A stretch of 64,000 nt of DNA. Origin: an uncultured Planctomycetia bacterium (GTDB lineage Bacteria; Omnitrophota; Gorgyraeia; Duberdicusellales; 4484-171). Positions 25,111 through 42,102 of this stretch are shown here, in pieces. The notes under the pieces are model-generated. The model saw nothing but the letters and a program-made list of their open reading frames with translations, did not search any database and was not told where the DNA came from. The position numbers and the translations under genes are program-made. Numbering within the stretch: the first letter of the stretch is position 1; the number at the start of each line of letters is the position of its first letter. The stretch spans positions 17,613-81,612 of the forward strand of contig CAZVQU010000003.1 in assembly GCA_964629655.1 (NCBI GenBank), written 5' to 3'.

Positions 25111-25188
25111 ATGAAAGTAACTATTCGATATATGATTCGTCCGGTAGTGCATTGCTCAGAGGGTTGCGCTATCAAGTCCCGGGCATGA
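25111..25188 (+). CDS. Possible 25-aa upstream/leader ORF (MKVTIRYMIRPVVHCSEGCAIKSRA)
   Basis: Strong SD GGGGGTGA 3 nt before ATG. Lies in the 5' leader between the operator-promoter and the Rrf2 gene. Contains HCxxxC. Confidence 0.2.
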   Translation: MKVTIRYMIRPVVHCSEGCAIKSRA

Positions 25189-25221
25189 CATTAAACTGCC
25201 CAAAATTAACCAAGGAGAAAG

Positions 25222-25623
25222 ATGAATTTAATTACCCGAGATGTTGACTATGCCATAAGAGCCTTATGCTGCATTGCGAAAAGAGAGGAAGGAGTCTACT
25301 CGGTTAATGAAATAGCCAAGTATTTAAAAATTCCTCGTCCTTTTTTGCGAAAAATTTTGCAAGTGTTAGGTAAAAAAAATATAGTGCATTCTTATAAAGG
25401 CAAAGGCGGAGGATTTAGATTGGCGGCTAAGCCGGGCAAGATTTCATTATTTGATATAATTACTTCGTTTCAGGGTCCGATAAGGTTAAATGATCATACT
25501 TTTAAGAGAAAAGTATGTCCTCATTTGAAGGAGTGTAATGTTAAGAAGAAACTTGATCGAGCAGAGAGAGTTATGGTTTCAGAATTAAAAGGGATCACCA
25601 TAGCGAATATTATCGAACATTAA
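25222..25623 (+). CDS. Rrf2-family transcriptional regulator (IscR/NsrR-like)
   Basis: DVDYAIRALCCIAKREEGVYSVNEIAKYLKIPRPFLRKILQVLGKKNIVHSYKGKGGGFRLA is the Rrf2 wHTH. C-terminal CPHLKEC. Confidence 0.75.
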   Translation: MNLITRDVDYAIRALCCIAKREEGVYSVNEIAKYLKIPRPFLRKILQVLGKKNIVHSYKGKGGGFRLAAKPGKISLFDIITSFQGPIRLNDHTFKRKVCPHLKECNVKKKLDRAERVMVSELKGITIANIIEH

Positions 25624-25637
25624 AAAGAAGAGTTATT

Positions 25638-26462
25638 ATGGCAAAACGTAAAATAATAAAAATTGATGAGAAGAAGTGTAACGGCTGTGGCCTTTGTGTG
25701 CCAAATTGTCCTGAGGGAGCTTTGCAGATTATTGACGGTAAGGCTCGGTTAGTCGGTGAGCTCTTGTGTGATGGCTTGGGTGCTTGTATTGGAGAATGTC
25801 CCGAAGGTGCTATTATTGTTGAGGAGCGTCAAGCCCAGGAGTACAACGAAGATAAGGTTATGGAAAATGTATCTAAGGCTGGGCCTGAGGTAATCGCAGC
25901 TCACTTAAAGCATCTTAAAGATCATGATCAGGATGATTATCTAAAACAGGCTTATGAGTACTTAAGAAAGTGCAAAATCGATATTCCCAAGGAAGAGGCA
26001 TCTGATGAATTGCCTTGTGGTTGTCCAGGTACAATGATGCGTGATTTTCGCAGTGAGAAAAAAGCTGACACAAAGGTTTCTACCGTAAGTGAGAGTTCTC
26101 AATTGCAGCAATGGCCGATACAGTTGCAGCTAGTCAGTCCAGTAGCTTCCTACTTTAAAGATGCTGATTTAGTGATTGCTGCTGACTGTGTACCTTTTTC
26201 CTACCCGAATTTTCATCAGCGGTTTTTGAAAGGTAAGGCCCTTGTAATTTTTTGCCCCAAGCTGGATACGGTATTAGATATGTATGTTGAGAAATTAACG
26301 GCAATTTTAAGGGAGAACAATATAAAATCAATAACCATTGCGCATATGGAGGTTCCTTGTTGTTTTGGCCTGGTAACTTTGGTGCAGAAGGCATTAAAAA
26401 AATCAGGGAAAAATATTATAATTAAAGAATATACAATCTCGGTTAAGGGTGAGCTCGTATAG
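25638..26462 (+). CDS. 4Fe-4S dicluster ferredoxin-domain protein with Cys-containing C-terminal domain
   Basis: CNGCGLCVPNCPEG...CDGLGACIGECPEG, two CxxCxxCxxxCP motifs. C-terminal PCGCPG...FCPKLD...PCCFGL. Confidence 0.55.
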   Translation: MAKRKIIKIDEKKCNGCGLCVPNCPEGALQIIDGKARLVGELLCDGLGACIGECPEGAIIVEERQAQEYNEDKVMENVSKAGPEVIAAHLKHLKDHDQDDYLKQAYEYLRKCKIDIPKEEASDELPCGCPGTMMRDFRSEKKADTKVSTVSESSQLQQWPIQLQLVSPVASYFKDADLVIAADCVPFSYPNFHQRFLKGKALVIFCPKLDTVLDMYVEKLTAILRENNIKSITIAHMEVPCCFGLVTLVQKALKKSGKNIIIKEYTISVKGELV

Positions 26463-26486
26463 TCTTTTTAAAGAAAGGAGTGGGTT

Positions 26487-27011
26487 ATGGATAAAAGCTT
26501 AGAGAAAGTGATGAATGAGCAATTAACAAAGGAGCTTTACTCAGCATATCTGTATCTTTCAATGGCTGCTTATTTTGAATCTGAGAATCTATCCGGATTC
26601 AGTCATTGGATGAAAATGCAGGTTCAGGAAGAGGTTCTGCATGCAATGAAAATCTTTGACTTCTTAAGTGGACGCGGCAGCAGAGTTGTTTTAGAGGCGA
26701 TAGATAAACCCTTGGCAAAATTCTCCTCGATTAAGGATGTTTTTGAGAAGACTTTAAAGCATGAGAAAAAAGTTACTGCAAGTATAAATGATTTGTATGC
26801 TCTAGCTAAGAAAGTTAACGATAGAGCCTCTTGCGTTTTTCTGCAGTGGTTTATTACTGAGCAGGTTGAGGAGGAAAAGAATCCTGCAGATATCTTGGGT
26901 AAGCTAAAGTATGTTAGCGATCAACCGGCAGGCATATTAATACTTGATAAAGAGCTGGCTACCCGTCGGCAACCGGTTTTAGATCCCGGCACGGAAGCAG
27001 CTGGTGCTTAG
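26487..27011 (+). CDS. Ferritin (non-haem, Ftn-like)
   Basis: MNEQLTKELYSAYLYLSMAAYFE...MKMQVQEEVLHAMKIFDFL ferroxidase-centre pattern. Confidence 0.8.
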   Translation: MDKSLEKVMNEQLTKELYSAYLYLSMAAYFESENLSGFSHWMKMQVQEEVLHAMKIFDFLSGRGSRVVLEAIDKPLAKFSSIKDVFEKTLKHEKKVTASINDLYALAKKVNDRASCVFLQWFITEQVEEEKNPADILGKLKYVSDQPAGILILDKELATRRQPVLDPGTEAAGA

Positions 27012-27049
27012 ATTGTGAAGGGATAGTTTCGCCTAAGTAAGGAGGTATA

Positions 27050-27184
27050 ATGACTATGCGAAAGAAAAAAAAGGCAAAATCAATGGTATGCGTAATTTGT
27101 AAAGGAGATAAGAAAGTCCAGGGTAAAAAGAAGTGTTGTTCTCCCGGAATGACTTCAAAGAAAAAGGGTAGCTGGAACCTTTAG
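27050..27184 (+). CDS. Small basic Cys-rich peptide (44 aa)
   Basis: MTMRKKKKAKSMVCVICKGDKKVQGKKKCCSPGMTSKKKGSWNL. SD AAGGAGG immediately upstream. Unlisted in track (<60 aa). Confidence 0.3.
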   Translation: MTMRKKKKAKSMVCVICKGDKKVQGKKKCCSPGMTSKKKGSWNL

Positions 27185-27231
27185 GAGCTATTTTTTAAAA
27201 GTTTGCTATTAGAAAAAGGAGAGTTATAAGT

Positions 27232-28878
27232 ATGTTTTGTTATCAATGCCAGGAAACGATTAAAAATACAGGGTGTACAAAAATTGGTGCTTGCGGAAAG
27301 GCTGAGCCGATAGCGAATTTACAAGATTTATTAGTATATGTTTTAAAAGGCCTATCTATCGTTGGAATTAAAACAAAAGATAAAGGTACTTTAGATAAAA
27401 AATATGGACGATTTATTTCCAAGGCTTTATTTGCAACAATAACTAATGCTAATTTTGACGATGCTAGAATAATTAGCTTAATTAAAGAGGCAATTATCTT
27501 AAGGGATGAGTTAAAAAGTAATTGTGAGACATGTAGTAGTGGTGAGGTTCATGATTCGGTAAGCTGGGGAGCAGACAGGGAAGAAGAATTTATTGAAAAA
27601 GCTAAACATATTGGAGTTCTATCTACTGAGAATGAAGATACTAGGTCATTAAGAGAGCTTCTTATTTATGGGGCAAAAGGAATAGCCGCATATGCTGATC
27701 ATGCAGCTGTTCTAGGTAAAGAAAATGACTTGATTTATGATTTCTTAATCGGGGCATTAGAGTCTACTACAGGAGATTTGTCAGTAGATGAGATGGTCGC
27801 TTTAGTCTTAAAAGCCGGGGAGTTTGCAGTTACTACTATGGCTTTGTTAGATGAAGCTAATACTGCCGCCTACGGTAATCCTGAGATAACTAAAGTTAAT
27901 ATCGGGGTCAGAAGTAATCCTGGCATACTTATCTCCGGACATGATCTTAAAGATATGGAAATATTGCTCAAGCAAACTGAAGGTGCTGGTGTGGATGTTT
28001 ATACCCATTCTGAGATGCTACCGGCAAATTACTATCCAAAATTTAAGAACTATGAGCATTTTGTAGGAAATTATGGCAATTCTTGGTGGAAGCAGCAAGT
28101 TGAGTTTGAGTCTTTCAACGGTCCGATTTTAATGACTACAAATTGTATTACTCCGGTTAAAGATTCTTACAAAGACAGGATTTTTACTACCGGTATGGCA
28201 GGTTATCCGGGAGTCAAACACATACCTGATTGCAATAATGGTCAGGGAAAAGATTTTTCAGAAATAATTGAATTGGCAAAACGATGCCAACCACCAAAAC
28301 AAATTGAAACCGGAGAAATAGTCGGTGGTTTTGCCCACAATCAGGTGCTTTCTTTGGCTGAGAAGGTGGTAGAGGCAATTAAGACAGGAGCAATAAAACA
28401 GTTTATCGTTATGGCTGGTTGCGATGGTCGAGGAGCTTCGAGAAGCTATTTCACCGAGGTTGCTGAAAAGTTACCTAAAGACACAGTAATTCTCACAGCC
28501 GGTTGTGCTAAGTATCGTTATAACAAACTGAGCCTTGGTGATATTGGCGGTATTCCCCGAGTACTTGATGCCGGACAGTGTAATGATTCTTATTCTTTAG
28601 CAGTTGTAGCCTTAAAATTAAAAGAAGTTTTTGGCATGAAGGATATCAATGAGTTGCCAATTTCCTTTGACATCGCCTGGTATGAGCAAAAAGCAGTAGC
28701 AGTTCTTCTGGCCCTTTTATCTTTGGGGGTAAAGGGAATCAGGTTAGGCCCAACACTGCCGGCATTTCTCTCCCCCAATGTGTTAAATGTTTTGGTTGAG
28801 AAGTTTGATATTAAACCGATTGCAGACGCCAAGAGTGATGTTAGCACAATGGTCAAAGGAGCAGGGGTGGCAAAATAA
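27232..28878 (+). CDS. hcp: Hydroxylamine reductase / hybrid-cluster protein
   Basis: [24 protein letters not shown]-terminal Cys motif and full-length (548 aa) Hcp architecture. Confidence 0.9.
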
Positions 28879-28888
28879 GTTTATCACA

Positions 28889-29599
28889 ATGAAGGAAACT
28901 CGGGTAACATTTAGCGAAAGGATAAAGAGAACTGCCACCATTGAGAGTTTTCGATTTAGGCCTGAAGAGAAAATAGATTTTTTACCTGGACAATTCCTTC
29001 AACTTATCTTTGATCAAGAAAATAGGAATAACTCCGATCTAAATAAATACCTTTCTTTTTCCTCAGCTCCCGATAAGGAGTGCTTTGAAGTAACTAAAAG
29101 AATGTCTGGTAGTGAATTCTCTCAAGCCCTAGCTAAGCTAAAAACAGGTGATAGATTTTTGATCAAGGCTCCGATGGGAAATTGTATTTTCAAAGATGAA
29201 TATAAAAAAATCGGATTTCTGGTTGGCGGAATTGGTATAACCCCGGTTATTTCAATACTAGAATATATTACAGGCAAAAATCTTGATACTGACGTCTGTT
29301 TGTTGTATTCTAATAGAACTGAGGAAGAAATAGCTTTTAAGGATGAGATCGATAGCTGGAGCCAGCAAAACCCAAATATTAATCCGGTATATGCCATTAC
29401 TAATTGCGCGCCGAAAGATAGGAAGTGTTTTTTCGGGACAATCGATGGACAATTCTTAATTGATAATATTTGTGATCCTAAGCAGCGAATTTTCTTTATT
29501 TTTGGACCACCAAACATGGTAGCATCGATGAAAAATATTTGTCTTGAAATTGGCTGCGTTAACGATATGGTAAAAGTAGAGAATTTTATTGGTTATTAA
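28889..29599 (+). CDS. FAD/NAD(P)-binding oxidoreductase (ferredoxin-NADP reductase-like; possible Hcp reductase partner)
   Basis: RFRPEEKIDFLPGQFLQL (FAD site) and GFLVGGIGITPVISIL (NAD site). Start set to ATG 28889 after hcp stop. Track start 28787 overlaps hcp. Confidence 0.6.
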   Translation: MKETRVTFSERIKRTATIESFRFRPEEKIDFLPGQFLQLIFDQENRNNSDLNKYLSFSSAPDKECFEVTKRMSGSEFSQALAKLKTGDRFLIKAPMGNCIFKDEYKKIGFLVGGIGITPVISILEYITGKNLDTDVCLLYSNRTEEEIAFKDEIDSWSQQNPNINPVYAITNCAPKDRKCFFGTIDGQFLIDNICDPKQRIFFIFGPPNMVASMKNICLEIGCVNDMVKVENFIGY

Positions 29600-29610
29600 G
29601 GAGGTAAGAG

Positions 29611-29751
29611 GTGAAAAAGTATATATGCATGGTTTGTCAGTACATTTATGATCCGTCTGAAAATGACAATATTGAATTTGCTCATCTGCCTGACGATTGG
29701 GTTTGCCCTGAGTGTGGAGTGGGGAAAGATCAGTTTGAGGAGGTTGAATAG
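29611..29751 (+). CDS. Rubredoxin
   Basis: (M)[14 protein letters not shown]...[16 protein letters not shown], canonical CxxC...CPxC rubredoxin. GTG start after AAGGAGG. Not in ORF track (46 aa). Confidence 0.8.
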
Positions 29752-29765
29752 GGGGGTTGATCTAA

Positions 29766-30926
29766 ATGAAGGCAGTTGAGATCAAAAAAAATATTTATTG
29801 GGTAGGAGGCATCGACCAGGGTTTAAAAGACTTTCATGGCTATTTAACCCAACGCGGAAGCACTTACAATGCCTACTTAATTATTGATGAAAAAATAGTA
29901 CTCGTTGATACGGTCAAGCACTATCTTTATGATGAGATGCTGGCCAGAATAAAAAGTGTCATAGATCCGGCTAAAATCGATTACATTATATCTAATCATA
30001 CCGAGATGGATCACTCCGGATGCTTGCCAAAGATTACCAAGGTTGCCAGCAAAGCCACAGTAATAGCTTCCCCTAATGGCCAGAAGGGATTAAAAAAGCA
30101 CTTTGAAGAAGAATTTATTTTTAAGATTGTTAATAGCGGTGATTCAATTAATATTGGTAAAAGAAATCTACAATTTGTGCTTACTCCCATGGTTCACTGG
30201 CCAGATTCTATGGTCACCTGCGTCCGGGAAGATAAGTTACTGCTTTCTAACGATGCTTTTGGCCAACATATTGCTTCTCGGGAGCGCTTTGATGATGAGC
30301 TTGGTTTAGATATAGCTATGCAAGAAGCTACTAAATATTACGCTAATATAGTTCTTCCCTTTGGGGTGCAAGTTAAAAAAGCTCTAGAAGCTTTATCGGG
30401 ATTGGAAATTGACATGATTGGCCCTAGTCATGGTATTATTTGGCGCAAATATATAAGTGAAATCATTAAGAAATATAAAAGTTGGGCCGATAATACCATT
30501 GCAGAAAAAGCTGTAGTCGTTTATGATACAATGTGGGGTTCGACCGAAAGGATAGCTAAGACAATTTCTAATGTTTTTATCAATAAAGGTATTCCAACAG
30601 AACTCTTAAATCTTAAAAAAACCCATATCTCCGATATCATGAGTCAAATTTTGACTGCTAAGTATATTTGCGTTGGCTCACCGACATTGAATAATACTAC
30701 ACTTCCTACTGTGGCAGCGTTTTTAAATTATATGCAGGGGCTTGGGCCTAAAAATAGAATTGGCTTGAGTTTTGGTTCATATGGCTGGGGTGGCCAAAGC
30801 ATTGGCCAGATGCAAGAAGTTTTAGAGACTTGTCGATTCCAATTATTAGATAGTATAAAAGTGCAGTATGTGCCGAACAAAGAGGTTTTGGCTGAGATAA
30901 CAAGTAAATTAGAGAAGGCTATCTAA
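29766..30926 (+). CDS. Flavodiiron protein (metallo-beta-lactamase + flavodoxin domains; O2/NO reductase)
   Basis: HTEMDHSG di-iron motif in N-terminal MBL domain. C-terminal flavodoxin-like VVVYDTMWGSTERIA. Confidence 0.85.
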   Translation: MKAVEIKKNIYWVGGIDQGLKDFHGYLTQRGSTYNAYLIIDEKIVLVDTVKHYLYDEMLARIKSVIDPAKIDYIISNHTEMDHSGCLPKITKVASKATVIASPNGQKGLKKHFEEEFIFKIVNSGDSINIGKRNLQFVLTPMVHWPDSMVTCVREDKLLLSNDAFGQHIASRERFDDELGLDIAMQEATKYYANIVLPFGVQVKKALEALSGLEIDMIGPSHGIIWRKYISEIIKKYKSWADNTIAEKAVVVYDTMWGSTERIAKTISNVFINKGIPTELLNLKKTHISDIMSQILTAKYICVGSPTLNNTTLPTVAAFLNYMQGLGPKNRIGLSFGSYGWGGQSIGQMQEVLETCRFQLLDSIKVQYVPNKEVLAEITSKLEKAI

Positions 30927-30964
30927 GGTTGGATGATAGAGGTTATAGTTTATAGAAGGAGGTA

Positions 30965-31543
30965 TTGATGAAGAGCGTAAAAGGAACGAAAACTGAGAAA
31001 AATCTATTAGCTTCTTTTGCTGGAGAGTCACAAGCCAGGAATCGCTACACTTATTTCGCCTCAGTTGCCAAAAAATCAGGCTATGAGCAGATATCAGCTA
31101 TATTCCTGGAAACAGCTGATAATGAGAAAGAACATGCTAAGAGATTTTTTAAATTCTTAGAGGGCGGCGAGGTTGAGATTGCTGCCGCTTATCCGGCAGG
31201 AGTTATTGGAAATACACTTGCTAATTTAGAGGCTGCTGCGGCCGGAGAATATTTAGAGTGGACCAAGCTTTACAAGGAGGCTGAAAATATTGCCAGAGAA
31301 GAGGGCTTTGAGCAAGTTGCTGACTTATTTAAAGAAATTGCCGGGGTAGAAGTCGAACACGAGAAGAGATACCGTAAGCTAATTGAAAATATAAAAGAAG
31401 GCAAGGTATTTGAAAGGGATGTAGTGGTCAAGTGGAAATGTCGCAATTGTGGATATGTTCATGAGGGTAAAGTTGCCCCTGAAGAGTGTCCAGCCTGCGC
31501 GCATCCGCAGAGTTTCTATGAGTTACTTTGTGAGAATTATTAA
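30965..31543 (+). CDS. Rubrerythrin
   Basis: Ferritin-like ExxH pairs (NEKEHAKRF, VEVEHEKRY) plus C-terminal rubredoxin-like WKCRNCGY...CPACAHP. Confidence 0.85.
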   Translation: MMKSVKGTKTEKNLLASFAGESQARNRYTYFASVAKKSGYEQISAIFLETADNEKEHAKRFFKFLEGGEVEIAAAYPAGVIGNTLANLEAAAAGEYLEWTKLYKEAENIAREEGFEQVADLFKEIAGVEVEHEKRYRKLIENIKEGKVFERDVVVKWKCRNCGYVHEGKVAPEECPACAHPQSFYELLCENY

Positions 31544-31573
31544 TGAGATTTTAGTCGAATTAAGGAGGTAGTT

Positions 31574-32017
31574 ATGAAGGGGCATGTCTGTAAGGTCTGT
31601 GGGTTCATATCTATAAAAGGAAACGCGCCTGATAATTGTCCGGTTTGTGGTGCCCCAAAGGCATCTTTTCTGGAGAAAGACGACGCTATAAAAGCTCCCC
31701 AAGATCCAAGCAATCTAAGCGAATTGGAAAAAAAACATATTCCAAGCATTACTGTTGTTAAAAAGTGCGGATTAATTCCTGAAGGTTGTCAGGATGTGCA
31801 TGTTAAAGTAGGCCAAATCCAGCATCCGATGAGCCCTGAACATTATATACAGCATATCGATTTTTACATTGATAAGGAATTTATAGCAAGGGTACACTTA
31901 AGTCCCGAGAAACTTAATCCGGCAGTAGCACTTCATCTTAAAGACGGTGCAGGCAAGCTTACTGCCGTAGAATTCTGTACTGTGCATGGAGTTTGGGTTA
32001 GTGAGGCAGATTTGTAA
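31574..32017 (+). CDS. Superoxide reductase (desulfoferrodoxin-like; N-terminal CxxC...CxxC domain + SOR domain)
   Basis: CKVCGF...CPVCG N-domain. SOR ligands EKKHIP, HPMSPEHYIQH, CTVHGVW. Confidence 0.75.
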   Translation: MKGHVCKVCGFISIKGNAPDNCPVCGAPKASFLEKDDAIKAPQDPSNLSELEKKHIPSITVVKKCGLIPEGCQDVHVKVGQIQHPMSPEHYIQHIDFYIDKEFIARVHLSPEKLNPAVALHLKDGAGKLTAVEFCTVHGVWVSEADL

Positions 32018-32035
32018 TTTAACAAAGGGAGTGTA

Positions 32036-32524
32036 ATGAGAAATACTTTTAATCCTCAGGAGATAGTAAAGATTGCAATTAACATTGAGGAGAATGGCAA
32101 AAAGCTTTATCAGGATCTAGAAGCTAAGGCTAAAGATAACAAGCTAAGGGAAGTGTGGAAGTATTTAGGAGAGCAGGAAGAGATTCATCGCCAGATCTTT
32201 CAAGAGATGCTTGATAATATCGGAGAGTATATTGTTTATGAGTTTAGCCCTGGTGAGTATGAAGCTTACTTGAGGGCTATTGCTACTGAGTATATCTTTA
32301 CTCAGGAGGTAATTAGCGGGAAGGTAAAGGATGGCTTTCGCAGTGATCTTGAAGCTGTTGAGTTCGGTATATTCGTAGAAAAGGAGTCAATTCTTACTTA
32401 TTTGGCCTTGCGTGAATATGTGTTGACCGGCAAGCAGGCAGTATTGGATAAGGTTATTAATCAGGAGAAGAAACATCTGAGCGATCTTACTGGTTTAAAG
32501 AATTTTTTAAAGAAGGAGGATTAA
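32036..32524 (+). CDS. Ferritin-like / rubrerythrin-family di-iron domain protein
   Basis: 162 aa. Predicted four-helix bundle with E...ExxH-like spacing (EQEEIHRQ, EKKHLSD). Confidence 0.45.
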   Translation: MRNTFNPQEIVKIAINIEENGKKLYQDLEAKAKDNKLREVWKYLGEQEEIHRQIFQEMLDNIGEYIVYEFSPGEYEAYLRAIATEYIFTQEVISGKVKDGFRSDLEAVEFGIFVEKESILTYLALREYVLTGKQAVLDKVINQEKKHLSDLTGLKNFLKKED

Positions 32525-32525
32525 G

Positions 32526-32756
32526 ATGGAGGTGAAAGTCTACTCAACACCAACTTGCCCCTATTGCACGATGGTAAAAAAGTACCTCTCTTCTAAAGGA
32601 GTTTCTTTCCAAAACATAGATGTTTCTGCAGATCAAACCGCCGGTGAGGAGATGGTAAAAATTTCCGGGCAAATGGGGGTGCCAGTGGTTGTCGCCGGTG
32701 AGGAGATTATTGTTGGCTTTGACAAAGGAGCAATAAACAAGGCTTTGAACCTATAA
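32526..32756 (+). CDS. Glutaredoxin-like protein (NrdH/Grx, CPYC)
   Basis: VKVYSTPTCPYCTMVKKYL thioredoxin-fold active site. Confidence 0.7.
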   Translation: MEVKVYSTPTCPYCTMVKKYLSSKGVSFQNIDVSADQTAGEEMVKISGQMGVPVVVAGEEIIVGFDKGAINKALNL

Positions 32757-32758
32757 CT

Positions 32759-33928
32759 GTGATGACAAAAGATCCGATATGTGGGATGTCAGTCAGCGAG
32801 AAGTCTGCCTTTCAATTGTCTTGGGCTGGTGAAAACTTTTACTTTTGCAGTAAGCATTGCCTTGAGAAATTCACTGAAAAAACAAAGACTAACAGCAGCG
32901 AAATTGATGTCTGCCCAATTGTCCCGAAAGTTCCACTTTATAAGAATAAAACCTTTATTGTTGCTATAGTTCTGGCAGGATTAATTCTGCTTTCCTATTC
33001 CCTACCATTCTTAGTACCGCTTCGAAAGTCACTTATCATCTATTTTAAAGCAATCTGGTGGGCTATACTTTTAGGGTTGGCCCTTGGCGGAGCAATGGAG
33101 CACTATATACCAAAAGAATATATTACTCATATTTTATCAAAACCAAAGAAGCGGACTATTTTTTACTCAGTAATTTTAGGTTTTTTTATGAGTGTATGCT
33201 CTCACGGCATCCTTGCTCTTTCAATAGAGTTACACAAAAAAGGTGCTTCTAACCCGGCAGTGGTAAGCTTTTTGCTTGCTAGTCCTTGGGCCAATTTAAT
33301 CCTTACTGTGCTGTTGGTAGGATTTTTTGGCTTAAAAGCCCTATTTATCATATTCTCAGCTATTGTAATAGCAATAATAACTGGGTTTATCTTTCAATTT
33401 CTAGAGAGAAAGAAGCTCATCGAAACCAACGAGAATATTATAGAGATAGAAGATAATTTTTCCATTATCAAGGATATGAAGAGGAGATTTAAGACACGAC
33501 GCTGGTCTCTTAAGGGGTTCGGAGAGGATATTAAGGGAGTTTTTAACGGTGCAGTGGCCTTGAGCAATATGGTGCTTTGGTGGGTATTAATAGGTATGGG
33601 GTTAGCTGGTTTAGCTGGGGCTTACATCCCGGCTACTATATTTGCTGACTATATGGGCCCAACTATTCTAGGTCTTTTTGTTACTCTTTTGGTGGCTACA
33701 GTAATTGAGGTTTGTTCTGAGGGCTCAGCTCCGATGGCTTTTGAGATATTTAGACAGACCGGTGCCCTAGGAAATAGTTTTGTTTTTCTTATGGCTGGGG
33801 TAGTTACTGACTATACTGAGATAGGGTTGCTATGGCATAATGTTGGTAAGCGGGTAGCCATTTGGTTGCCGATTGTAACTGTTCCCCAAGTGATTATTTT
33901 AGGCATCATTGCTAATATTTTATTTTAA
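32759..33928 (+). CDS. YHS/TRASH metal-binding domain fused to DUF318-type permease (ArsP-like)
   Basis: N-terminal DPICGMSV...FYFCSKHC (YHS). Two DUF318 repeats each with a CS.G/H motif (FMSVCSHGIL, VIEVCSEGSAPMA). About 8 TM. Confidence 0.6.
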   Translation: MMTKDPICGMSVSEKSAFQLSWAGENFYFCSKHCLEKFTEKTKTNSSEIDVCPIVPKVPLYKNKTFIVAIVLAGLILLSYSLPFLVPLRKSLIIYFKAIWWAILLGLALGGAMEHYIPKEYITHILSKPKKRTIFYSVILGFFMSVCSHGILALSIELHKKGASNPAVVSFLLASPWANLILTVLLVGFFGLKALFIIFSAIVIAIITGFIFQFLERKKLIETNENIIEIEDNFSIIKDMKRRFKTRRWSLKGFGEDIKGVFNGAVALSNMVLWWVLIGMGLAGLAGAYIPATIFADYMGPTILGLFVTLLVATVIEVCSEGSAPMAFEIFRQTGALGNSFVFLMAGVVTDYTEIGLLWHNVGKRVAIWLPIVTVPQVIILGIIANILF

Positions 33929-33957
33929 TTAGAGTATAATTTAGAGAAGGATAAACC

Positions 33958-34863
33958 ATGTTTGATTTAATAATTATCGGTGCTGGTCCTGCTGGTATTA
34001 CAGCTGCTGTATATGCTGCCAGAAAGCAGATGAAAACTTTGGTTATCAGCAAAGATATAGGTGGTCAAGCCGCCATAAGTGGTGATATTGAGAACTATAC
34101 CGGTTATCAGTTTATTACCGGTCCGGAGTTGAGCATTAAATTCGAAGAGCATATGCGCAGATACAATATCAAAGTGCAGGAAGGCGAGGAAGTTATTAAG
34201 GTAGAGAAGAAAGGTAAGTTGTTTGCAGTTACCTCAAGTAAAGGTTCATACCAAGCAAAGACAATCATAATTGCTTCCGGAAAGCGCTCAAAAGAGCTCA
34301 ATGTCCCTGGTGAAAAGGAATTCAAGAATAAAGGCCTTAGCTATTGCGCTACTTGCGATGGTCCGTTATTTTCCCAAAAAAAAGTAGCAGTTATTGGCGG
34401 AGGAAACTCCTGCCTAGACGCAGCTCTCCAATTAATGGATATTGCTAAAAAAGTTTATATTATTAATATTAATCCTCAACTAAGAGGTGATGATATAATG
34501 CTTGAGAAGATTCGTGATAGTAGCAAAGTAACAATTATAAATAATTTTCAAGTTATAGCAGTCTTAGGTGGGGAGATGGTTAACGGCCTTAAGATAAAGA
34601 AAGGCAGCAGTGAGGAGACTTTAGTTGTTGAAGGAGTCTTTGTTGAAATCGGCCTGATTCCTAACTCAGAATTTGCGAAAGTCTTAGATAGGAATAAACT
34701 CGGTGAGATTAAGGTTAATTCTCGCAACCAGACCGATGTTTCGGGAATTTTTGCTGCCGGAGACGTTACTGATGTTCCTGAGAAGCAAATTGTAATTGCT
34801 TGCGGCGAGGGCTCCAAAGCCGGCCTCTCAGCCTTTAAATATCTAGCGACCAGCAAGTTCTAA
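33958..34863 (+). CDS. trxB: Thioredoxin reductase
   Basis: FDLIIIGAGPAG, redox CATCDG, NADPH site VIGGGNS, 301 aa. Confidence 0.85.
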   Translation: MFDLIIIGAGPAGITAAVYAARKQMKTLVISKDIGGQAAISGDIENYTGYQFITGPELSIKFEEHMRRYNIKVQEGEEVIKVEKKGKLFAVTSSKGSYQAKTIIIASGKRSKELNVPGEKEFKNKGLSYCATCDGPLFSQKKVAVIGGGNSCLDAALQLMDIAKKVYIININPQLRGDDIMLEKIRDSSKVTIINNFQVIAVLGGEMVNGLKIKKGSSEETLVVEGVFVEIGLIPNSEFAKVLDRNKLGEIKVNSRNQTDVSGIFAAGDVTDVPEKQIVIACGEGSKAGLSAFKYLATSKF

Positions 34864-34882
34864 GATCTATTGAGGAGCTAAA

Positions 34883-35353
34883 GTGAGAAAAATTACCGAC
34901 GATATAATCTACTTATTGCAGAAACAAGGGTTTGTTATTGTTTCTACCCTGGATTCAAATGGGAGCATTCACTGTTCGGCAAAAGGTATAGCCGGGATAG
35001 AGGCAGAGGGCAAGATTTATCTTATTGATCTCTACTTAGGGAGAACTTTTAGTAATCTTAAACGGAATTCTACCATAAGTATTACAGCTGTAGATGAAGA
35101 TGAGTTTAGCGGATTCACCTTAAAGGGTAGGGCAAGGATTGTGAACCGGGAAGAGATAAAAGGTCATATCATTGCAAGCTGGGAAGACAAAGTCGTCCAG
35201 AGAGTGTCTAAGCGAGTAATCGGGCATATTAAGAAAGAAAGGAAGAGCCCCCATCACCCAGAGGCCATTTTTCCTCATCCTCAATATCTTATTGAAGTAG
35301 ACGTAGATAGTGTGGTTGATTTGACCCCCAAAAATCTTAAAATTAAGAAATAA
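34883..35353 (+). CDS. Pyridoxamine-5'-phosphate-oxidase-like FMN-binding split-barrel protein
   Basis: 156 aa. GFVIVSTLDSNGSIHCS pattern typical of PNPOx-like general-stress proteins. Confidence 0.4.
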   Translation: MRKITDDIIYLLQKQGFVIVSTLDSNGSIHCSAKGIAGIEAEGKIYLIDLYLGRTFSNLKRNSTISITAVDEDEFSGFTLKGRARIVNREEIKGHIIASWEDKVVQRVSKRVIGHIKKERKSPHHPEAIFPHPQYLIEVDVDSVVDLTPKNLKIKK

Positions 35354-35359
35354 AAAGAT

Positions 35360-35779
35360 ATGAAGAGAGTATTATTTTTATGCACCGGGAATTCTTGTCG
35401 AAGCCAAATGGCTGAAGGGTTTCTGCATCATTTAGGAGGAGATGATCTCAAAGCATTTAGTGCCGGGATTATGCCGATAGGAGTTAATTCTTTGACCATT
35501 AAGGTAATGAATGAGCTTGATGTTGATATTTCGTCTCAGCGCTCAAAATCAATAAAGGAGTTCTTGGGTCAGCAATTCGACTATGTTATTACGCTTTGTG
35601 ATAGCGCTAAAGGAGATTGCCCGATTTTTCCCGGAGAACATACGAGGTTGCATTGGGATTTAGATGATCCTGCTAGCGTTAATGGCAGCGGTGAGGAAAA
35701 AATCGCTGTCTTTAGAAGAATACGCGATCAGATCAAAAGCCATATCGAATTATTTTTAAAGGAAAACAGCACCGACTAG
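35360..35779 (+). CDS. arsC: Arsenate reductase, LMW-PTP (thioredoxin-coupled) type
   Basis: VLFLCTGNSCRSQMAEG P-loop (CX5R) plus downstream Cys (CDSAKGDC) as in Trx-dependent ArsC. Confidence 0.8.
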   Translation: MKRVLFLCTGNSCRSQMAEGFLHHLGGDDLKAFSAGIMPIGVNSLTIKVMNELDVDISSQRSKSIKEFLGQQFDYVITLCDSAKGDCPIFPGEHTRLHWDLDDPASVNGSGEEKIAVFRRIRDQIKSHIELFLKENSTD

Positions 35780-35815
35780 CTGTTTGCTAAACAATACCAT
35801 ATAGCTACTAATAGT

Positions 35816-36589
35816 ATGAGAGAGTTTATTAATATCGCTGTCATAGCTGCCAAAGAAGCTGCAAAGATTCACAAGAAATACTTTAATACTGATTTTGCAA
35901 TAGAGACCAAGGGGAAGTCTTTCGACTTGGTTACGGTTGCTGATGTTGAAGCTGAGAAAGCAGTAGTATCAGTCATAAAAGATAATTTCCCTAACCATAA
36001 TATCCTAGCTGAAGAGGCAAAATACGCAGAAACTGATTCAGAATACAGGTGGATCATAGATCCCTTAGACGGTACAAATAATTTTTCAAATAAAATACCT
36101 ATGTTTTCTGTATCAATAGCATTGGTTAAGAATGGAGAGGTCTTGGCCGGAGTAGTCTATGATGTTATGCGAGATGAGCTATTTTGTGCTCAAAAAGGCA
36201 AGGGGGCATTTTTGAATGGTCAAAGAGTGAATACCAATTTCGCAAATGAATTAAAGCAGGCAATTCTTATTACTGGTTTTTATTATGATAGAGGCGCGGC
36301 TATGGTTGACAATCTGGAGAAGGTAAAACAATTTCTTCAAAAGAAGATAATCGGTATAAGGCGATTTGGTTCGGCTGCTTTGGATTTATGTTATGTTGCC
36401 TGTGGCCGGGCTGCAGGTTTTTGGGAATTTGAGCTAAATCCATGGGATTTTGCTGCTGGCAAGTTAATTGTGGAAGAAGCCGGAGGAAGAGTGACCGGAA
36501 GAAACGGCGAGGTGGTTTCACTGAAGAAATCTTTTGTTGTGGCTTCAAACAGTAAAATTCACTCCCAAATGCTGGAAGTTATAAATTGA
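35816..36589 (+). CDS. Inositol monophosphatase family protein (SuhB-like)
   Basis: WIIDPLDGTNNF and GSAALDLCYVACGRA motifs. Confidence 0.75.
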   Translation: MREFINIAVIAAKEAAKIHKKYFNTDFAIETKGKSFDLVTVADVEAEKAVVSVIKDNFPNHNILAEEAKYAETDSEYRWIIDPLDGTNNFSNKIPMFSVSIALVKNGEVLAGVVYDVMRDELFCAQKGKGAFLNGQRVNTNFANELKQAILITGFYYDRGAAMVDNLEKVKQFLQKKIIGIRRFGSAALDLCYVACGRAAGFWEFELNPWDFAAGKLIVEEAGGRVTGRNGEVVSLKKSFVVASNSKIHSQMLEVIN

Positions 36590-36628
36590 TCGATGTTTGA
36601 TAAAGGCTAATGCAAGAGGAGGGTTAGG

Positions 36629-36901
36629 ATGGATTGGAAGATATTCTTTGCAACATTCGGGGCAATATTTTTAGCTGAACTTGCTGATAAAACTCAATTG
36701 GTAGGAATTGGTATGTCAGCACGGTCAGGAAAGCCCCTGACTGTCTGGTTGGCCTCGGTATCAGCTTATATTATTATTACAGCAATTTCAGTATTAATTG
36801 GGGCAGTTTTGGGAAAGTATATTAAGCCGGAACTAATAAGATATTTTGGTGCTTCAGCATTTATTCTAATTGGAATTCTGATGTTTCTAGGAAAGGTGTA
36901 G
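36629..36901 (+). CDS. UPF0016 (GDT1/TMEM165-like) half-domain membrane protein
   Basis: ELADKTQLV resembles the E-x-G-D-(K/R)-(T/S) UPF0016 motif. Three predicted TM. Confidence 0.5.
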   Translation: MDWKIFFATFGAIFLAELADKTQLVGIGMSARSGKPLTVWLASVSAYIIITAISVLIGAVLGKYIKPELIRYFGASAFILIGILMFLGKV

Positions 36902-36932
36902 CTATGAAGAGTCCGGAGGAGGCTAACAAGAT

Positions 36933-38744
36933 ATGAGTTTCGACGTATTTTACATGCAGATACTTTGCTTTGGCGTGCTTGTGCTGGCAGCTAATTTTGG
37001 CGGAAAGCTGACTCGACGCTTGCATATTGGAGAAGTTGTCGGACAGGTCCTCGGAGGGCTTATTGTTGGCCCGGTACTTCTTCTTTTCCTAGGAGATAAA
37101 ATTCCAGCCTACAAAACCGCATTAGAGGCACTACATTTTTTTACCTTTGCTTTTCTTTGTCTTGTTGTTTTTGGAATCGGCGGTGAGCATAGCATTGCGA
37201 AGCTTAGGCGCCTCGGCAAGGATGCATTAATTATATGTTTTGTTCAGGCTTTTGCTACTTGGTTTTGTGTAACTGCAACATTTTTTTTCCTAGGATTCAA
37301 GCCAATCGTAGCCCTTATTGTAGGAAGTATTGGAATTGCAACTGCGCCGGCGACAACATTCGTAATAATGAATAAGCTTGGGATTGCCGGGAAGATGCGG
37401 GATACCCTTGGGAGCATCGTAATCCTTGATGATGTAATTGAAGTTGTAATTTTTTCAATAATAGCACAAGCTGCTTTACTTCTTCAAAAAGGTTCAGAGA
37501 TGTCTTGGGCCAGTCTATCTTTTCCGGTTGTAAGAGAAGCCGGTTTTGCACTCCTGCTCGGGTTCGCTATTTTTATTGCTTTGCGTTTTACGATTAACCG
37601 CAGGTGGCTTGTGTCGAAAGAGGAGAGAGAACGAACCGGAACACCTCTCGGTTCAGAATTTTTATCCCGGCTTATCTCTGAGTTGCCGGGCCCGTCAGTC
37701 GATGTGTTTGTGATCGCCTGGGGTTTTGTTACTCTGGGAGTCGGCCTTGCCTTGCATTGGAATCTTCCCTTTTTAATCACTGCAGTCAGTGCCGGGATTT
37801 TTGTATCAAATTTTTATAGCCACCAAGTATTTAAATCACTGAGGATTGAAAATGCAACTTCAGTTTTTACGCTTATATTTTTCGCCCTTATTGGAGCCAA
37901 TGCTAACATTGAAGCTTTCCATCCCGAGAATTTTTTATTTATCGGTTTTTATGTTGCTGCCAGAACTTTGGGGAAAATGGGTGGTACTTGGCTTGGCTGC
38001 ATAGTGACGCATCAAAATAAAAAATTAAGGCATATTCTGCCAAAATTAATGCTTCCTCAGGCTGGAGTTGCTGCTATCGAGGCATTTTTTATTGCCGCTG
38101 TTCTTGGAAAGGATGGCCAGACCATTTTGGGCATCATATTGCCAGGACTTATAATTTTTGAAACAATCGGTGTTTTAACTTCCGAGCGGGCGCTCTTGAA
38201 GTGGCGCTCATGGGCTACTGGTGGTGGTGAGCTAATTGGCGAAGAGGATAAGATTAGAGAGTTGGTCGAGAAAGAAGAACTAAACATGAATAAACTTATT
38301 AAGCCGGAGTGCCTGCGGGTCCCCTTAGATGTGAGTTCAAAGGGTGAGGCTATTTGGGAATTGATACGCACACTTCAGTCTGTGGGTTTTATTCATAATG
38401 CCGGGAAAGTGCTTGAAATAATACTTCAGAGAGAAAGACAAGGCGGAACTACTCTTGGCCAAGGAGTTGCCATCCTTCACGGTAGAATTCCCGGCCTTAG
38501 CGAGCCTGCCGTTGCTTTAGGAGTTTTGCGAAAAGGTCACGGTATTAATTTTGGCGGCCAGGAAGATACCTCGGTCGATATAATTTATATGGTTCTTTCG
38601 CCTGAAGATAAACCTGAGCTTCATCTTCAGATATTAGCTACGATAGCAAAGTTTTTGCTAGACAGTGATGTTAGAACGTTATTACGCTATGCCAAGAATG
38701 AATTAGAAGCAATGAAGATTATTGATGAGCACTCTAGGAAATAG
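36933..38744 (+). CDS. Cation:proton antiporter (CPA/Na+-H+ exchanger domain) fused to C-terminal PTS EIIA(Ntr)-type domain
   Basis: About 400 aa 11-13 TM exchanger core. C-terminal CLRVPLDVSSKGEAIWELI...GQGVAILHGRIP...VDIIYMVLSPED resembles PtsN/EIIA type-2. Confidence 0.7.
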   Translation: MSFDVFYMQILCFGVLVLAANFGGKLTRRLHIGEVVGQVLGGLIVGPVLLLFLGDKIPAYKTALEALHFFTFAFLCLVVFGIGGEHSIAKLRRLGKDALIICFVQAFATWFCVTATFFFLGFKPIVALIVGSIGIATAPATTFVIMNKLGIAGKMRDTLGSIVILDDVIEVVIFSIIAQAALLLQKGSEMSWASLSFPVVREAGFALLLGFAIFIALRFTINRRWLVSKEERERTGTPLGSEFLSRLISELPGPSVDVFVIAWGFVTLGVGLALHWNLPFLITAVSAGIFVSNFYSHQVFKSLRIENATSVFTLIFFALIGANANIEAFHPENFLFIGFYVAARTLGKMGGTWLGCIVTHQNKKLRHILPKLMLPQAGVAAIEAFFIAAVLGKDGQTILGIILPGLIIFETIGVLTSERALLKWRSWATGGGELIGEEDKIRELVEKEELNMNKLIKPECLRVPLDVSSKGEAIWELIRTLQSVGFIHNAGKVLEIILQRERQGGTTLGQGVAILHGRIPGLSEPAVALGVLRKGHGINFGGQEDTSVDIIYMVLSPEDKPELHLQILATIAKFLLDSDVRTLLRYAKNELEAMKIIDEHSRK

Positions 38745-38810
38745 CGATATTAGTTACTACAATCGGCTTTCGCGTTTAAAATAGAAAAACAAGTAATACT
38801 TAAAGAGAGG

Positions 38811-39899
38811 GTGTGCATGCAAGAGGTTGTTCGTGAAGAACGGAATTTAAGTTTTTTCGAAAAATATCTAACGATTTGGGTTATCGGCTGTATTGGTCTG
38901 GGTATTTCACTTGGAAGGCTGTTTCCCCAAGTGGCTGTTGCTTTGGATAAGGTCTCTATATATCAGGTTTCAATTCCGATAGCAATATGCCTTTTTTTCA
39001 TGATGTATCCAATTATGGTCAAGATTGATTTTGCCCAAGTAGTTAAGGCCGGAAAGACTCCGAAACCGGTATTGCTTACCCTGTTCGTAAATTGGTGCAT
39101 TAAACCATTTACGATGATGGCTATTGCGACTTTATTTTTGGGAGTAATTTTTAAAGGTTGGCTGCCGGGATTCGAGGTTATCAAAGGGGGAGGGTAAGTA
39201 GAGCTATATCGATCGTATATTTCCGGATGTATTTTACTCGGTATCGCTCCTTGTACGGCAATGGTCCTTATTTGGGGGCATCTGTCTAAAGGTAATGACG
39301 GCCACACCTTGGTTATGGTAGCAATAAACTCCTTAACAATGTTATTTCTCTATGCGCCATTAGGCAGTTGGTTATTAGGTGTTAACAAAATGCCTATACC
39401 TTGGCAAACAATTGTATTATCGGTTGTAATTTATGTAGGGCTACCGCTTATTCTCGGGTATTATTCAAGGAGACTGATTATTGCTAGAAAAGGTTTTAAG
39501 TGGTTTGAAGAAAAGTTCATTCATCGTCTAACTCCGGTATCTATCGGGGCATTGCTTATTACCTTGGTTCTTTTGTTTTCATTTAAAGGGAATTTGATTA
39601 TTAGTCAGCCACAAATCATTGTATTAATCGCCGTACCGCTCTTTATTCAAACCTGCCTGATTTTCGGATTAGCCTATTTAATGGCTAGGTGGCTAAAATT
39701 TCCATACCGGGATGCTGCTCCTTCTGCGCTTATCGGGGCAAGCAATCACTTTGAGGTTGCTATAGCAACCTCAGCAATGCTTTATGGGTTATCATCAGGA
39801 GCGTCATTGGCTACTGTAGTAGGTGTGTTGATTGAGGTGCCAGTTATGCTCATGTTGGTCAGAGTATGCTTGAGGACTAAGCATATATTTGCTAGATAG
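38811..39899 (+). pseudogene. ACR3-family arsenite efflux permease interrupted by a single in-frame TAA (39195-39197)
   Basis: ORFs 38811-39197 and 39261-39899 are in the same frame. Read-through gives ...[34 protein letters not shown]..., restoring a roughly 362-aa ACR3 (N-term FEKYLTIWVIGCIGLGISLG; conserved GIAPCTAM). Confidence 0.7.
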
Positions 39900-40958: not shown

Positions 40959-40964
40959 ATTGTT

Positions 40965-42029: not shown

Positions 42030-42102
42030 TTTGTCGGCGCGGGTAATTGTTCTATCCTACTCTTTATGAAAGTATGAGTTTGTCGATTTAAAGAAAAACA
42101 AT

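Follow-up and report, generated by a model that had tools for sequence, protein, structure and literature searches.

In Escherichia coli and other proteobacteria, Bacillus and Streptomyces, hmp, hcp-hcr and ytfE are repressed by NsrR, a Rrf2-family protein that senses nitric oxide (NO) through a [4Fe-4S] cluster and whose operator consensus is gATGyAT-N5-ATrCATc (PMC1274295). In Desulfovibrio and Clostridium, hcp is paired with frdX in units controlled by HcpR (PMC1274295, PMC5701242), and the PerR-controlled oxidative-stress loci of Clostridia, e.g., those of Clostridioides difficile, contain rbr, sor/dfx, rd and the genes of flavodiiron proteins and NROR (PMC11980386; bioRxiv 10.1101/2024.09.17.613384). 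Here, we describe an array of stress-defence genes headed by the gene of a Rrf2-family regulator (hereafter, Rrf2) at positions 25222-39899 of a 64,000-nucleotide stretch of contig CAZVQU010000003.1 (the window), which comes from an anaerobic Candidatus Omnitrophota bacterium; the relatives of its proteins carry Omnitrophota names almost throughout. The rbo-rub-roo genes of Desulfovibrio form a comparable oxidative-stress set. Omnitrophota are, to our knowledge, a widespread phylum without cultivated representatives, and our literature search found no description of their regulation. In functional terms, the array is the Omnitrophota counterpart of the NsrR regulon, the HcpR-hcp-frdX units and the PerR-controlled loci of Clostridia; control of equivalent gene sets by Rrf2, PerR and HcpR is already well known, and current understanding is not overturned.

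We consider it probable that the region is an autoregulated stress operon. The sequence comparisons establish the identities of the genes, the conserved operator with its tie to Rrf2 and the detoxification genes, the mosaic tail and the nonsense codon. From the sequence, we infer that Rrf2 binds a palindrome in the promoter upstream of its own gene and acts as a repressor, that redox stress is the signal, and that 20 genes are transcribed from this one promoter. The elements of the array and of its leader are as follows:

25028-25055, plus strand: promoter-operator copy B, with TTGACA at 25028-25033, the palindrome core GATACCAATATGGTATC at 25037-25053 and the -10 element TATCCT with an upstream TG at 25050-25055
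25111-25188, plus strand: micro-ORF (open reading frame) of 25 amino acids (aa), MKVTIRYMIRPVVHCSEGCAIKSRA, downstream of the operator and upstream of Rrf2, with a strong Shine-Dalgarno sequence
25181-25201, plus strand: conserved block GGGCA-TGACATTAAAC-TGCCC, which forms a weak hairpin and overlaps the stop codon of the micro-ORF
25222-25623, plus strand: Rrf2-family regulator, 133 aa (PF02082 over its full length, E = 1.7e-32)
25638-26462, plus strand: two-[4Fe-4S] ferredoxin-domain protein (Fer4), 274 aa, the C-terminal domain of which is Cys-rich and of AF_0155 type (PF27217; Pfam/NCBIfam)
26487-27011, plus strand: non-haem ferritin (Ftn; Pfam/NCBIfam)
27050-27184, plus strand: pep44, a Lys/Cys-rich ORF of 44 aa, MTMRKKKKAKSMVCVICKGDKKVQGKKKCCSPGMTSKKKGSWNL, conserved in close relatives
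27232-28878, plus strand: hybrid cluster protein, Hcp (NCBIfam hydroxylamine reductase, 842 bits versus a cut-off of 367)
28889-29599, plus strand: FNR-like FAD/NAD(P)-binding reductase, 236 aa, without an Fe-S or globin domain
29611-29751, plus strand: rubredoxin (Rd), 46 aa, GTG start (Pfam)
29766-30926, plus strand: class A flavodiiron protein (FDP), an O2/NO reductase (Pfam/NCBIfam)
30965-31543, plus strand: rubrerythrin (Rbr; NCBIfam, 301 bits versus a cut-off of 200)
31574-32017, plus strand: superoxide reductase (SOR) with an N-terminal rubrerythrin-type rubredoxin-like domain (Pfam)
32036-32524, plus strand: rubrerythrin-family diiron protein (Rbr-like) without a rubredoxin domain, 162 aa (Pfam)
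32526-32756, plus strand: YruB-family glutaredoxin-like protein (Grx) with a CPYC motif (TIGR02196, 101.3 bits versus a cut-off of 88.55)
32759-33928, plus strand: permease with YHS and ArsP_1 (formerly DUF318) domains and two VCS motifs (Pfam)
33958-34863, plus strand: TrxR-like flavoprotein (TrxB) with a CATC motif and without the HRR NADPH motif (best match, the C-terminal half of AhpF)
34883-35353, plus strand: PNPOx-like FMN-binding protein (Pfam)
35360-35779, plus strand: LMWP-type arsenate reductase ArsC (TIGR02691, 157.9 bits, slightly under the cut-off of 174.3)
35816-36589, plus strand: inositol-monophosphatase-family protein (IMPase), a variable insertion absent from related loci L001, L003 and L186 and present in the sister genome
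36629-36901, plus strand: half-size GDT1/UPF0016 cation transporter (GDT1), sporadic in relatives
36933-38744, plus strand: CPA-type cation/proton antiporter fused to a PtsN-like EIIA domain (CPA-EIIA), a population-specific insertion
38817-39899, plus strand: ACR3 arsenite efflux permease gene (401 versus 283 bits), with an in-frame TAA at 39195-39197

All genes named in the initial annotation of this ~14.7-kb array were recovered by Pfam and NCBIfam assignments, on the plus strand and in the order given there. Their number is 20 and not 23, or 21 when ORFs are counted, since ACR3 is split in two.

With the NsrR regulon, the array shares a Rrf2-family regulator, a palindrome over the promoter, and hcp and NO-detoxifying genes as targets, and Cys98, Cys105 and Asp9 of Rrf2 align with their NsrR counterparts. 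It differs in its operator, ATGATACCA-N3-TGGTATCAT, which has another half-site and spacing, and in the first ligand, which is His. The regulator gene is here promoter-proximal in a very long operon and preceded by a micro-ORF, and the O2 and reactive oxygen species (ROS) enzymes of strict anaerobes dominate. The PerR-controlled loci, which are clustered and derepressed by oxidative stress, use the same enzymes and the same logic of electron transfer from NAD(P)H through a reductase and rubredoxin to FDP, Rbr and SOR; clustered genes of Rbr, SOR, Rd, FDP and a putative rubredoxin reductase are all present in the window. However, the regulator is a Rrf2 and not a Fur-family PerR, the reductase is FNR-like and not of the pyridine-nucleotide-disulfide type found in NROR, and the array adds Hcp, ferritin, a thiol-reductase pair, the permease and arsenic genes. 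No Fur-family gene is present among the 20 genes of the array (block B) and the six genes of the block that precedes it (block A, see below); the sister contig alone has a FUR gene, well downstream. As to the HcpR units, where Hcp is likewise accompanied by a ferredoxin-like carrier and the NO-responsive regulator is encoded nearby, HcpR belongs to the CRP/FNR family and recognizes TGTGA-N6-TCACA or TTGAC-N4-GTCAA sites, to which the regulator and the site in the window are unrelated.

The gap 5' of the Rrf2 gene is 203 nt long, and promoter copy B (TTGACA, 16 nt, TG-n-TATCCT), located ~170 nt upstream of Rrf2, ranks first among the sigma-70-like matches of the region. The perfect palindrome ATGATACCA-N3-TGGTATC occupies the space that separates its two hexamers and extends over them. 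The full operator, ATGATACCAATATGGTATCCT, is a 21-bp palindrome with a 9-3-9 architecture, the conserved form of which is ATGATAC(C/T)A-N3-TGGTATC(AT). Regulators of the Rrf2 family, IscR and NsrR among them, usually have such a palindrome over the promoter of their own gene, and an operator so placed, with Rrf2 as the first gene, is the standard signature of an autoregulated repressor.

The palindrome was searched for, without TTGACA and allowing up to two mismatches, in 59 genome loci anchored on the permease. Twelve matches were obtained, nine of them with TTGACA 3-4 nt upstream, and eight of these nine head the homologous cluster in other Omnitrophota loci, in front of Rrf2 or Fer4. A scan of metagenome contigs for TTGACA-N3-4-GATACY-N4-TGGTATC yielded at least 120 sites; 104 non-redundant sites among the matches listed had enough downstream sequence to be evaluated, and the counts that follow refer to these. 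The first downstream ORF is a Rrf2 orthologue (40-60% identity) at 82 sites, and at 86 such an orthologue is found within the first two ORFs. Fer4, the constant partner of Rrf2, follows it at 59 sites, and the contiguous downstream genes further include those of Hcp (28 sites), rubredoxin (21), FDP (16), the FNR-like reductase (15), SOR (13), Grx (9) and TrxB (9). Genes of PNPOx, NifU-like, Tpx-like and DJ-1/PfpI proteins, a second SOR type and a hemerythrin-domain protein also recur, and in four long operator-anchored contigs (L084, L098, L162 and L178) the same genes continue unbroken from Rrf2 to Grx-TrxB. Within the array itself, no operator copy was found at up to three mismatches, save for a chance-level match in the permease gene. 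Because Rrf2 and then detoxification genes recur behind the same promoter-operator, the reading of the Rrf2-headed NO/O2/ROS/thiol operon as a conserved unit is well supported by these comparisons. The initial annotation had suggested that a single Rrf2 may head a combined NO/O2/ROS/arsenic defence locus: the NO/O2/ROS/thiol part of this proposal stands, with its conserved promoter-operator, Rrf2 and detoxification genes, and the arsenic genes are not conserved members.

Rrf2 of the window scores below every NCBIfam equivalog cut-off of its family: NsrR (52.5 versus 182 bits), IscR (48.8 versus 208), RirA (65 versus 193) and also CymR, HypR and the SUF regulator (80.6 bits for the latter). The solved structures of IscR, NsrR, CymR and RsrR are about equally distant from it, the best solved relative being the IscR-type 4cic. 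In an alignment to Streptomyces coelicolor NsrR (5n07), whose ligand set is C93, C99, C105 and Asp8, residues His92, Cys98 and Cys105 of the window protein occupy the positions of the three Cys ligands, and Asp9 that of Asp8. The (H/C)92-x5-C98-x6-C105 motif is kept in 12 orthologues, with His at position 92 in ten and Cys in two, and both Cys residues invariant. Such residues are compatible with a cluster or metal ligand set different from that of NsrR. The parallel with NsrR drawn earlier thus does not extend to the protein itself, as NsrR orthology is rejected by the score (52.5 versus 182 bits), the first ligand (His) and an operator unlike gATGyAT-N5-ATrCATc. The window Rrf2 represents a separate subfamily that resembles NsrR, HcpR or PerR in the genes that it would control. 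It is the only DNA-binding protein encoded by the 26 genes of blocks A and B. Taken together with its 21-bp operator and the controlled genes, this subfamily with its unusual His/Cys-Cys-Cys ligand motif offers a testable regulon.

Homologues of the micro-ORF located between the operator and Rrf2 (25-27 residues, consensus MDITIKYMLRPVAHCKEGCSRLSWARR) were found in 49 of 121 operator-bearing loci among the matches listed, which include five named Omnitrophota metagenome-assembled genomes (L006, L027, L035, L042 and L044) and ~45 metagenome loci. The micro-ORF is present in every long-leader locus examined and also occurs in front of rubredoxin and ferritin genes. Its entropy by codon position is 0.54/0.38/0.96, versus ~1.6 in the flanks. 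Because variation is three-periodic, pN/pS is 0.13 in frame (synonymous sites being almost saturated) versus 2.1 and 1.8 out of frame, and 46 of 47 copies carry a Shine-Dalgarno-like sequence, we conclude from the substitution pattern that the micro-ORF is a translated peptide under purifying selection. No match to it was found in Pfam, NCBIfam or Rfam or by a literature search with the peptide string; an unannotated, strongly conserved micro-protein at the operon head is a new element.

The block that overlaps the micro-ORF stop codon has the conserved form GGGCA-(Y)GACGTTAAAC-TGCCC, and in the alignment another hairpin occupies its place in loci that lack it. The consensus fold of the block has an energy of -5.9 kcal/mol with minimal covariation, and the window copy has no U-tract. 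The leader folds no better than shuffled sequence (z = -0.41), and no known RNA element was matched by Rfam at E <= 1 in the 166-nt leader or in the rest of the 18-44 kb interval. One hypothesis would make the block an attenuator. It is doubtful, though conceivable, that the peptide takes part in a sensing circuit, either as a cis-acting leader, translation of which over GGGCA-GACGTTAAAC-TGCCC would tune the transcription or translation of Rrf2 and the detoxification genes, or as a trans-acting His/Cys peptide that works with Rrf2. If so, the O2/NO defence of Omnitrophota would be under two-layer control by a repressor and a micro-ORF, reaching as far as organoarsenical biosynthesis in the close clade; we know of no described counterpart of such control in NsrR, IscR or PerR systems.

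The 19 junctions inside the array are 1-66 nt long and 17 of them do not exceed 39 nt, in agreement with the initial annotation, which had gaps mostly under 40 nt. The several start/stop overlaps reported there are absent. The apparent overlap of Hcp with the reductase gene vanishes when the latter starts at the conserved position 28889, 10 nt past the Hcp stop codon; this start is backed by the sequence and by alignment of orthologues from residue 1, and with it no overlap is left in the array. The description of the array as uninterrupted and co-directional is true as an arrangement, but co-directionality is uninformative because every credible gene between 18971 and 64000 is on the plus strand. 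Only 3 of ~55 credible genes in the 64-kb window are on the minus strand, and GC skew is strongly positive throughout. Gaps between plus-strand neighbours in the window have a median of 30 nt and are at most 70 nt in 75% of cases. Packing of the array is above this background, since its run of 19 successive junctions of 66 nt or less is ~3 times as long as the next longest run in the window (6). Assuming independence, the chance of 19 such junctions is roughly 0.75^19 = 0.004. No intrinsic terminator was predicted in any of the 19 gaps, and a consensus scan of the array found 48 promoter-like sites versus 48.1 expected, i.e., the chance level, in line with the earlier remark that no internal promoters or terminators were obvious. 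A hairpin 3' of ACR3 has no U-tract and a z of 0.06, which gives no support for a terminator there.

The mechanism that we propose is as follows. A Rrf2 dimer would bind the 9-3-9 palindrome in the sigma-70-type promoter at 25028-25055 and block RNA polymerase. An Fe-S cluster is probably bound to Rrf2 through (His/Cys)92, Cys98 and Cys105, and O2, NO or peroxide would damage this sensor or shift its redox state, leading to release of Rrf2 and derepression of the operon. Electrons would then pass from NAD(P)H via the FNR-like reductase to rubredoxin and on to FDP (O2/NO), Rbr (H2O2) and SOR (superoxide), Hcp and its ferredoxin-like partner would deal with NO and hydroxylamine, and ferritin would sequester iron and so limit free iron. 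The roles of the reductase, rubredoxin, FDP, Rbr, SOR and ferritin are established for these enzyme families. The glutaredoxin-like/TrxR-like disulfide reductase pair is placed on both sides of the Cys-containing YHS/ArsP-family permease. At the 3' end, thioredoxin-type ArsC and ACR3 would have been added in this lineage, beside the likely reductant; IMPase, GDT1 and CPA-EIIA may have been inserted between them later, and ACR3 then knocked out by a nonsense mutation. Finally, a duplicated promoter-operator would put the ArsS-ArsM cluster of block A under the same control.

Several observations weigh against this model. A single 14.7-kb transcript is deduced from spacing, and short gaps are the norm here. 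L001 and L186 hold the part from the reductase to ACR3 without Rrf2 or an operator at its head, so that this part can use other promoters. Structured inserts beside rbr in the sister genome and in related locus L002 suggest that internal processing or regulation is possible. Rrf2 is 54% identical to its L003 counterpart (L003 900-1286), the adjacent Fer4 and neighbouring genes being ~87% identical. Lastly, the signal of Rrf2 may be O2, NO, peroxide or Fe-S status, and its top sub-threshold NCBIfam matches are of the SUF-regulator and RirA types. It is possible, though we would not expect it, that the array consists of several independent adjacent transcription units in a tightly packed, strand-biased small genome, with Rrf2 controlling the first few genes only (micro-ORF, Rrf2, Fer4, ferritin and perhaps Hcp) and with own promoters for the rubredoxin/rubrerythrin/SOR, Grx-permease-TrxB and ArsC-to-ACR3 blocks. 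Plus-strand genes from 18971 on and the background of short gaps fit such an arrangement, as do the L001 and L186 loci and the large structured gaps around rbr in relatives; in addition, many loci have Rrf2 directly in front of FNR-Rbr-SOR, with Fer4-Ftn upstream of Rrf2, and the permease lies upstream of the operator in 27 loci among the matches listed. However, terminator-like hairpins are absent from the 19 gaps and promoter-like matches are at the chance level, the 17 gaps of 39 nt or less leave scant room for promoters, and the four long contigs named above carry the same genes unbroken from Rrf2 to Grx-TrxB.

The sub-threshold order of the matches, in which the SUF regulator (80.6 bits) and RirA (65) outrank NsrR (52.5), and the IscR type of the closest solved structure would also suit an iron- or Fe-S-status regulator of the IscR/RirA/SufR kind that serves mainly iron homeostasis and Fe-S protection, as would the ferritin gene in the operon and the NifU-like and cysteine-desulfurase-like genes downstream in some related loci. 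We regard this as unlikely, for the downstream genes are mostly those of Hcp, FDP, SOR, rubredoxin and rubrerythrin, no isc/suf biosynthesis operon follows, and every equivalog cut-off is missed widely. That the palindrome is bound by a factor encoded elsewhere and that Rrf2 is just the first regulated gene seems very unlikely. Binding of the palindrome by Rrf2 is our deduction, and the window also contains, downstream, a histidine kinase and a receiver-only response regulator, but Rrf2 is the first ORF at most evaluable sites (82/104) at 40-60% identity, no other DNA-binding protein is encoded in blocks A and B, and the palindrome has the position that is usual for IscR and NsrR. We give least credence to horizontal acquisition of the whole 14.7-kb array as an arsenic/redox resistance island: close relatives do differ in gene content at both ends, but these differences are single-gene insertions and deletions and not transfer of a unit, neither GC content (0.37-0.43) nor GC skew breaks at the flanks, the core is syntenic over Omnitrophota at 50-90% identity, and none of the 26 genes in blocks A and B encodes a transposase or integrase (tRNA genes were not scanned for).

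Across the permease-anchored loci, the stable core consists of (Rrf2/Fer4/Ftn), the FNR-like reductase, Rbr, SOR, Rbr-like, Grx, the permease and TrxB, and Rd, FDP, Hcp and PNPOx are frequent; Hcp is among the variable members, as are ArsC, ACR3, IMPase, GDT1 and CPA. The regulator module appears exchangeable because Rrf2 has diverged from L003 so much more than the neighbouring genes have, which suggests that alternative head modules are swapped by recombination. L003 is a short-leader form without the micro-ORF. Since core synteny is stable, Rrf2 divergent and the interval between ArsC and ACR3 variable, we read the array as a redox core that is conserved, joined to a head that can be exchanged and a tail that was remodelled recently. 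A long, operon-looking array is thereby resolved into conserved function and recent add-ons.

The permease is located between Grx and TrxB in 13 genome loci and directly upstream of the operator in 27 operator-anchored loci among the matches listed. Because it is found in two different arrangements, its linkage to the regulon survives rearrangement, and the constant association of a YHS/ArsP-family permease with anaerobic O2/NO defence is a new observation. It scores below the equivalog cut-offs of SO_0444 (Cu/Zn; 114 versus 300 bits) and SaoE (90 versus 325 bits) and is assigned at the level of the broad Pfam family ArsP_1. We infer that it transports thiophilic metal(loid)s by means of Cys motifs that would depend on the adjacent reductase pair. 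In Clostridium pasteurianum, Cp34 and Cp9 form a TrxR-like plus glutaredoxin-like reducing system, and the YruB glutaredoxin is described under TIGR02196 as the rubredoxin-operon glutaredoxin. The window likewise has a YruB-family Grx-like protein near an AhpF/TrxR-like flavoprotein in a rubredoxin gene cluster; unlike Cp34/Cp9, the pair has no peroxiredoxin partner in the window and flanks the permease, and its likely clients include ArsC.

Among the remaining genes of the core, Fer4 is likely an electron carrier analogous to FrdX, and the FNR-like enzyme may be a NAD(P)H:rubredoxin reductase. The N-terminus of SOR is a RUBY_RBDX domain and not the desulforedoxin domain of classical 2Fe-SOR, and it is kept in 18 of 59 related genome loci. 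A pep44 homologue lies upstream of the reductase gene in L001 (~3258-3392) and is found at 8981-9115 of L180; in sister contigs it is called as a gene. Many of the more distant loci have another Cys-rich ORF, of ~80 aa, between Fer4 and Hcp; neither this ORF nor pep44 has a Pfam or NCBIfam match. In the sister genome (L185 3651-3802 and 4379-4551) and in L002 (2832-3024 and 3601-3756), rbr lies between two copies of a strongly structured repeat. This repeat has the form TCCCGAT...hairpin...ATCGGGATAATTCG, folds at -37 to -59 kcal/mol, and makes up inserts of 150-190 nt; it is absent from the window, where the corresponding gaps are 38 and 30 nt. It may serve in the processing or stability of RNA, or else be mobile DNA of small size.

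In Gram-positive bacteria, ars operons of the ArsR-ArsB/ACR3-ArsC type include the thioredoxin-coupled ArsC of pI258. The ArsC of the window has Cys8 within a CX5R motif (CTGNSCR), Cys80 and Cys87, i.e., the complete thioredoxin-coupled triad, and the proposal that its place next to TrxB and Grx is functionally coherent is borne out because this full triad is present. Like the Gram-positive operons, the window has a Trx-type ArsC and an ACR3 pump gene in the same orientation; it differs from them in its linkage to a redox-stress operon, in the three unrelated genes between ArsC and ACR3, in the nonsense codon of ACR3 and in the lack of ArsR, no ArsR/SmtB-type repressor being present among the 26 genes at 19001-39899. 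ArsC and ACR3 occur in the close clade only (L001-L003, L180/L185 and L186), where they always close the array, and none of ArsC, ACR3, IMPase, GDT1 and CPA is found in the operator-anchored metagenome loci among the matches listed. The arsenic genes, counted earlier as part of the defence unit, are thus a feature of one clade. The interval between ArsC and ACR3 contains nothing in L003 and L186, an unmatched ~5.6 kb in L001, IMPase and GDT1 in the sister genome, and IMPase, GDT1 and CPA-EIIA in the window; CPA-EIIA is found neither in the sister contig nor in any of the 179 other loci compared.

The TAA of ACR3 is codon 127 if the gene starts with the ATG at 38817, or codon 129 if it starts with the GTG at 38811, and close relatives have GAG or CAG at this place. 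ACR3 of the sister genome is intact (360 aa, 93% identical), and the 120 best ACR3 relatives are all full length. The conserved Cys of ACR3 (GIAPCTAMV) lies downstream of the TAA and is intact. An assembly error is ruled out by the identical sequence in two independent assemblies from different runs, which show no mismatch over 4.6-5.0 kb, and selenocysteine is ruled out as well, the codon being TAA and not TGA and lying in a non-conserved loop with Glu or Gln in relatives. As judged from these sequences, ACR3 is a pseudogene, a genuine nonsense allele of the population, and arsenite efflux is a recent loss while ArsC remains intact. In the sister genome, a histidine kinase gene follows ACR3 at once; in the window, the same gene is 3.2 kb further on, behind genes of AlaDH, an ATP-grasp protein and a methyltransferase (40014-42849) that are missing at that position in the sister contig. 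The kinase has a PAS domain and, at its C-terminus, a PilZ domain; its gene is followed by that of the receiver-only response regulator (43075-45519 for both), and in the sister genome it is this pair that comes directly after ACR3.

The second copy of the promoter-operator and the genes behind it, which make up block A, are as follows:

18964-18991, plus strand: promoter-operator copy A, with TTGACA at 18964-18969, the palindrome ATGATACCA-AAC-TGGTATCAT at 18971-18991 (core 18973-18989) and an overlapping -10 element TATCAT at 18986-18991
19001-19672, plus strand: TIGR04283 glycosyltransferase (228.1 bits versus a cut-off of 182)
19732-20226, plus strand: DSP phosphatase (Pfam)
20223-21647, plus strand: MerA/Lpd-like flavoprotein disulfide reductase (Pfam)
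21659-22321, plus strand: DedA/VTT protein (Pfam)
22337-24388, plus strand: ArsS radical-SAM protein fused to an ArsM-like methyltransferase (TIGR04167, 407.8 bits versus a cut-off of 300; DUF3641 domain)
24401-25018, plus strand: TIGR04282/DUF2064 protein (198.1 bits versus a cut-off of 134)

Copies A and B are identical at 34 of 37 nt, with an exact match of the palindrome core. Copy A is directly 5' of the start of block A at 19001, its -10 element ending at 18991, and would give a leaderless or near-leaderless mRNA. The six-gene block is also present in the sister contig, and both operator copies are kept in sister contigs (L180/L181) while the flanks diverge. Because an operator copy heads block A and is kept in this way, arsenosugar-type biosynthesis appears to be wired to the same regulator in the close clade, which suggests a link of this pathway to the redox sensor of the array and lends unexpected support to the arsenic link of the initial annotation. 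ArsS, TIGR04282 and TIGR04283 score above their curated cut-offs, as expected of an arsenosugar biosynthesis cluster by NCBIfam definitions, and the putative arsenosugar-type function of the block is read from these family names. Block A differs from such clusters in the fusion of ArsS to the ArsM-like domain, which is common in Omnitrophota, and in its Rrf2 operator, which it carries in the close clade only. No operator was found in front of the ArsS blocks of distant Omnitrophota, which lie elsewhere, and no block A genes are present in the 120 operator-anchored loci listed. In distant locus L182, an ArsS block is followed by MsrAB, cupin, ATP-grasp and AlaDH genes, and an ATP-grasp/AlaDH pair also follows the array in the window. 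The region at 18800-18890, which includes a TTGCAA...TAGAAT promoter-like site, is homologous to L001 3150-3240, directly 5' of pep44 and the FNR-like gene. This hints that block A and Rrf2-Fer4-Ftn may have been inserted into an older promoter-pep44 arrangement.

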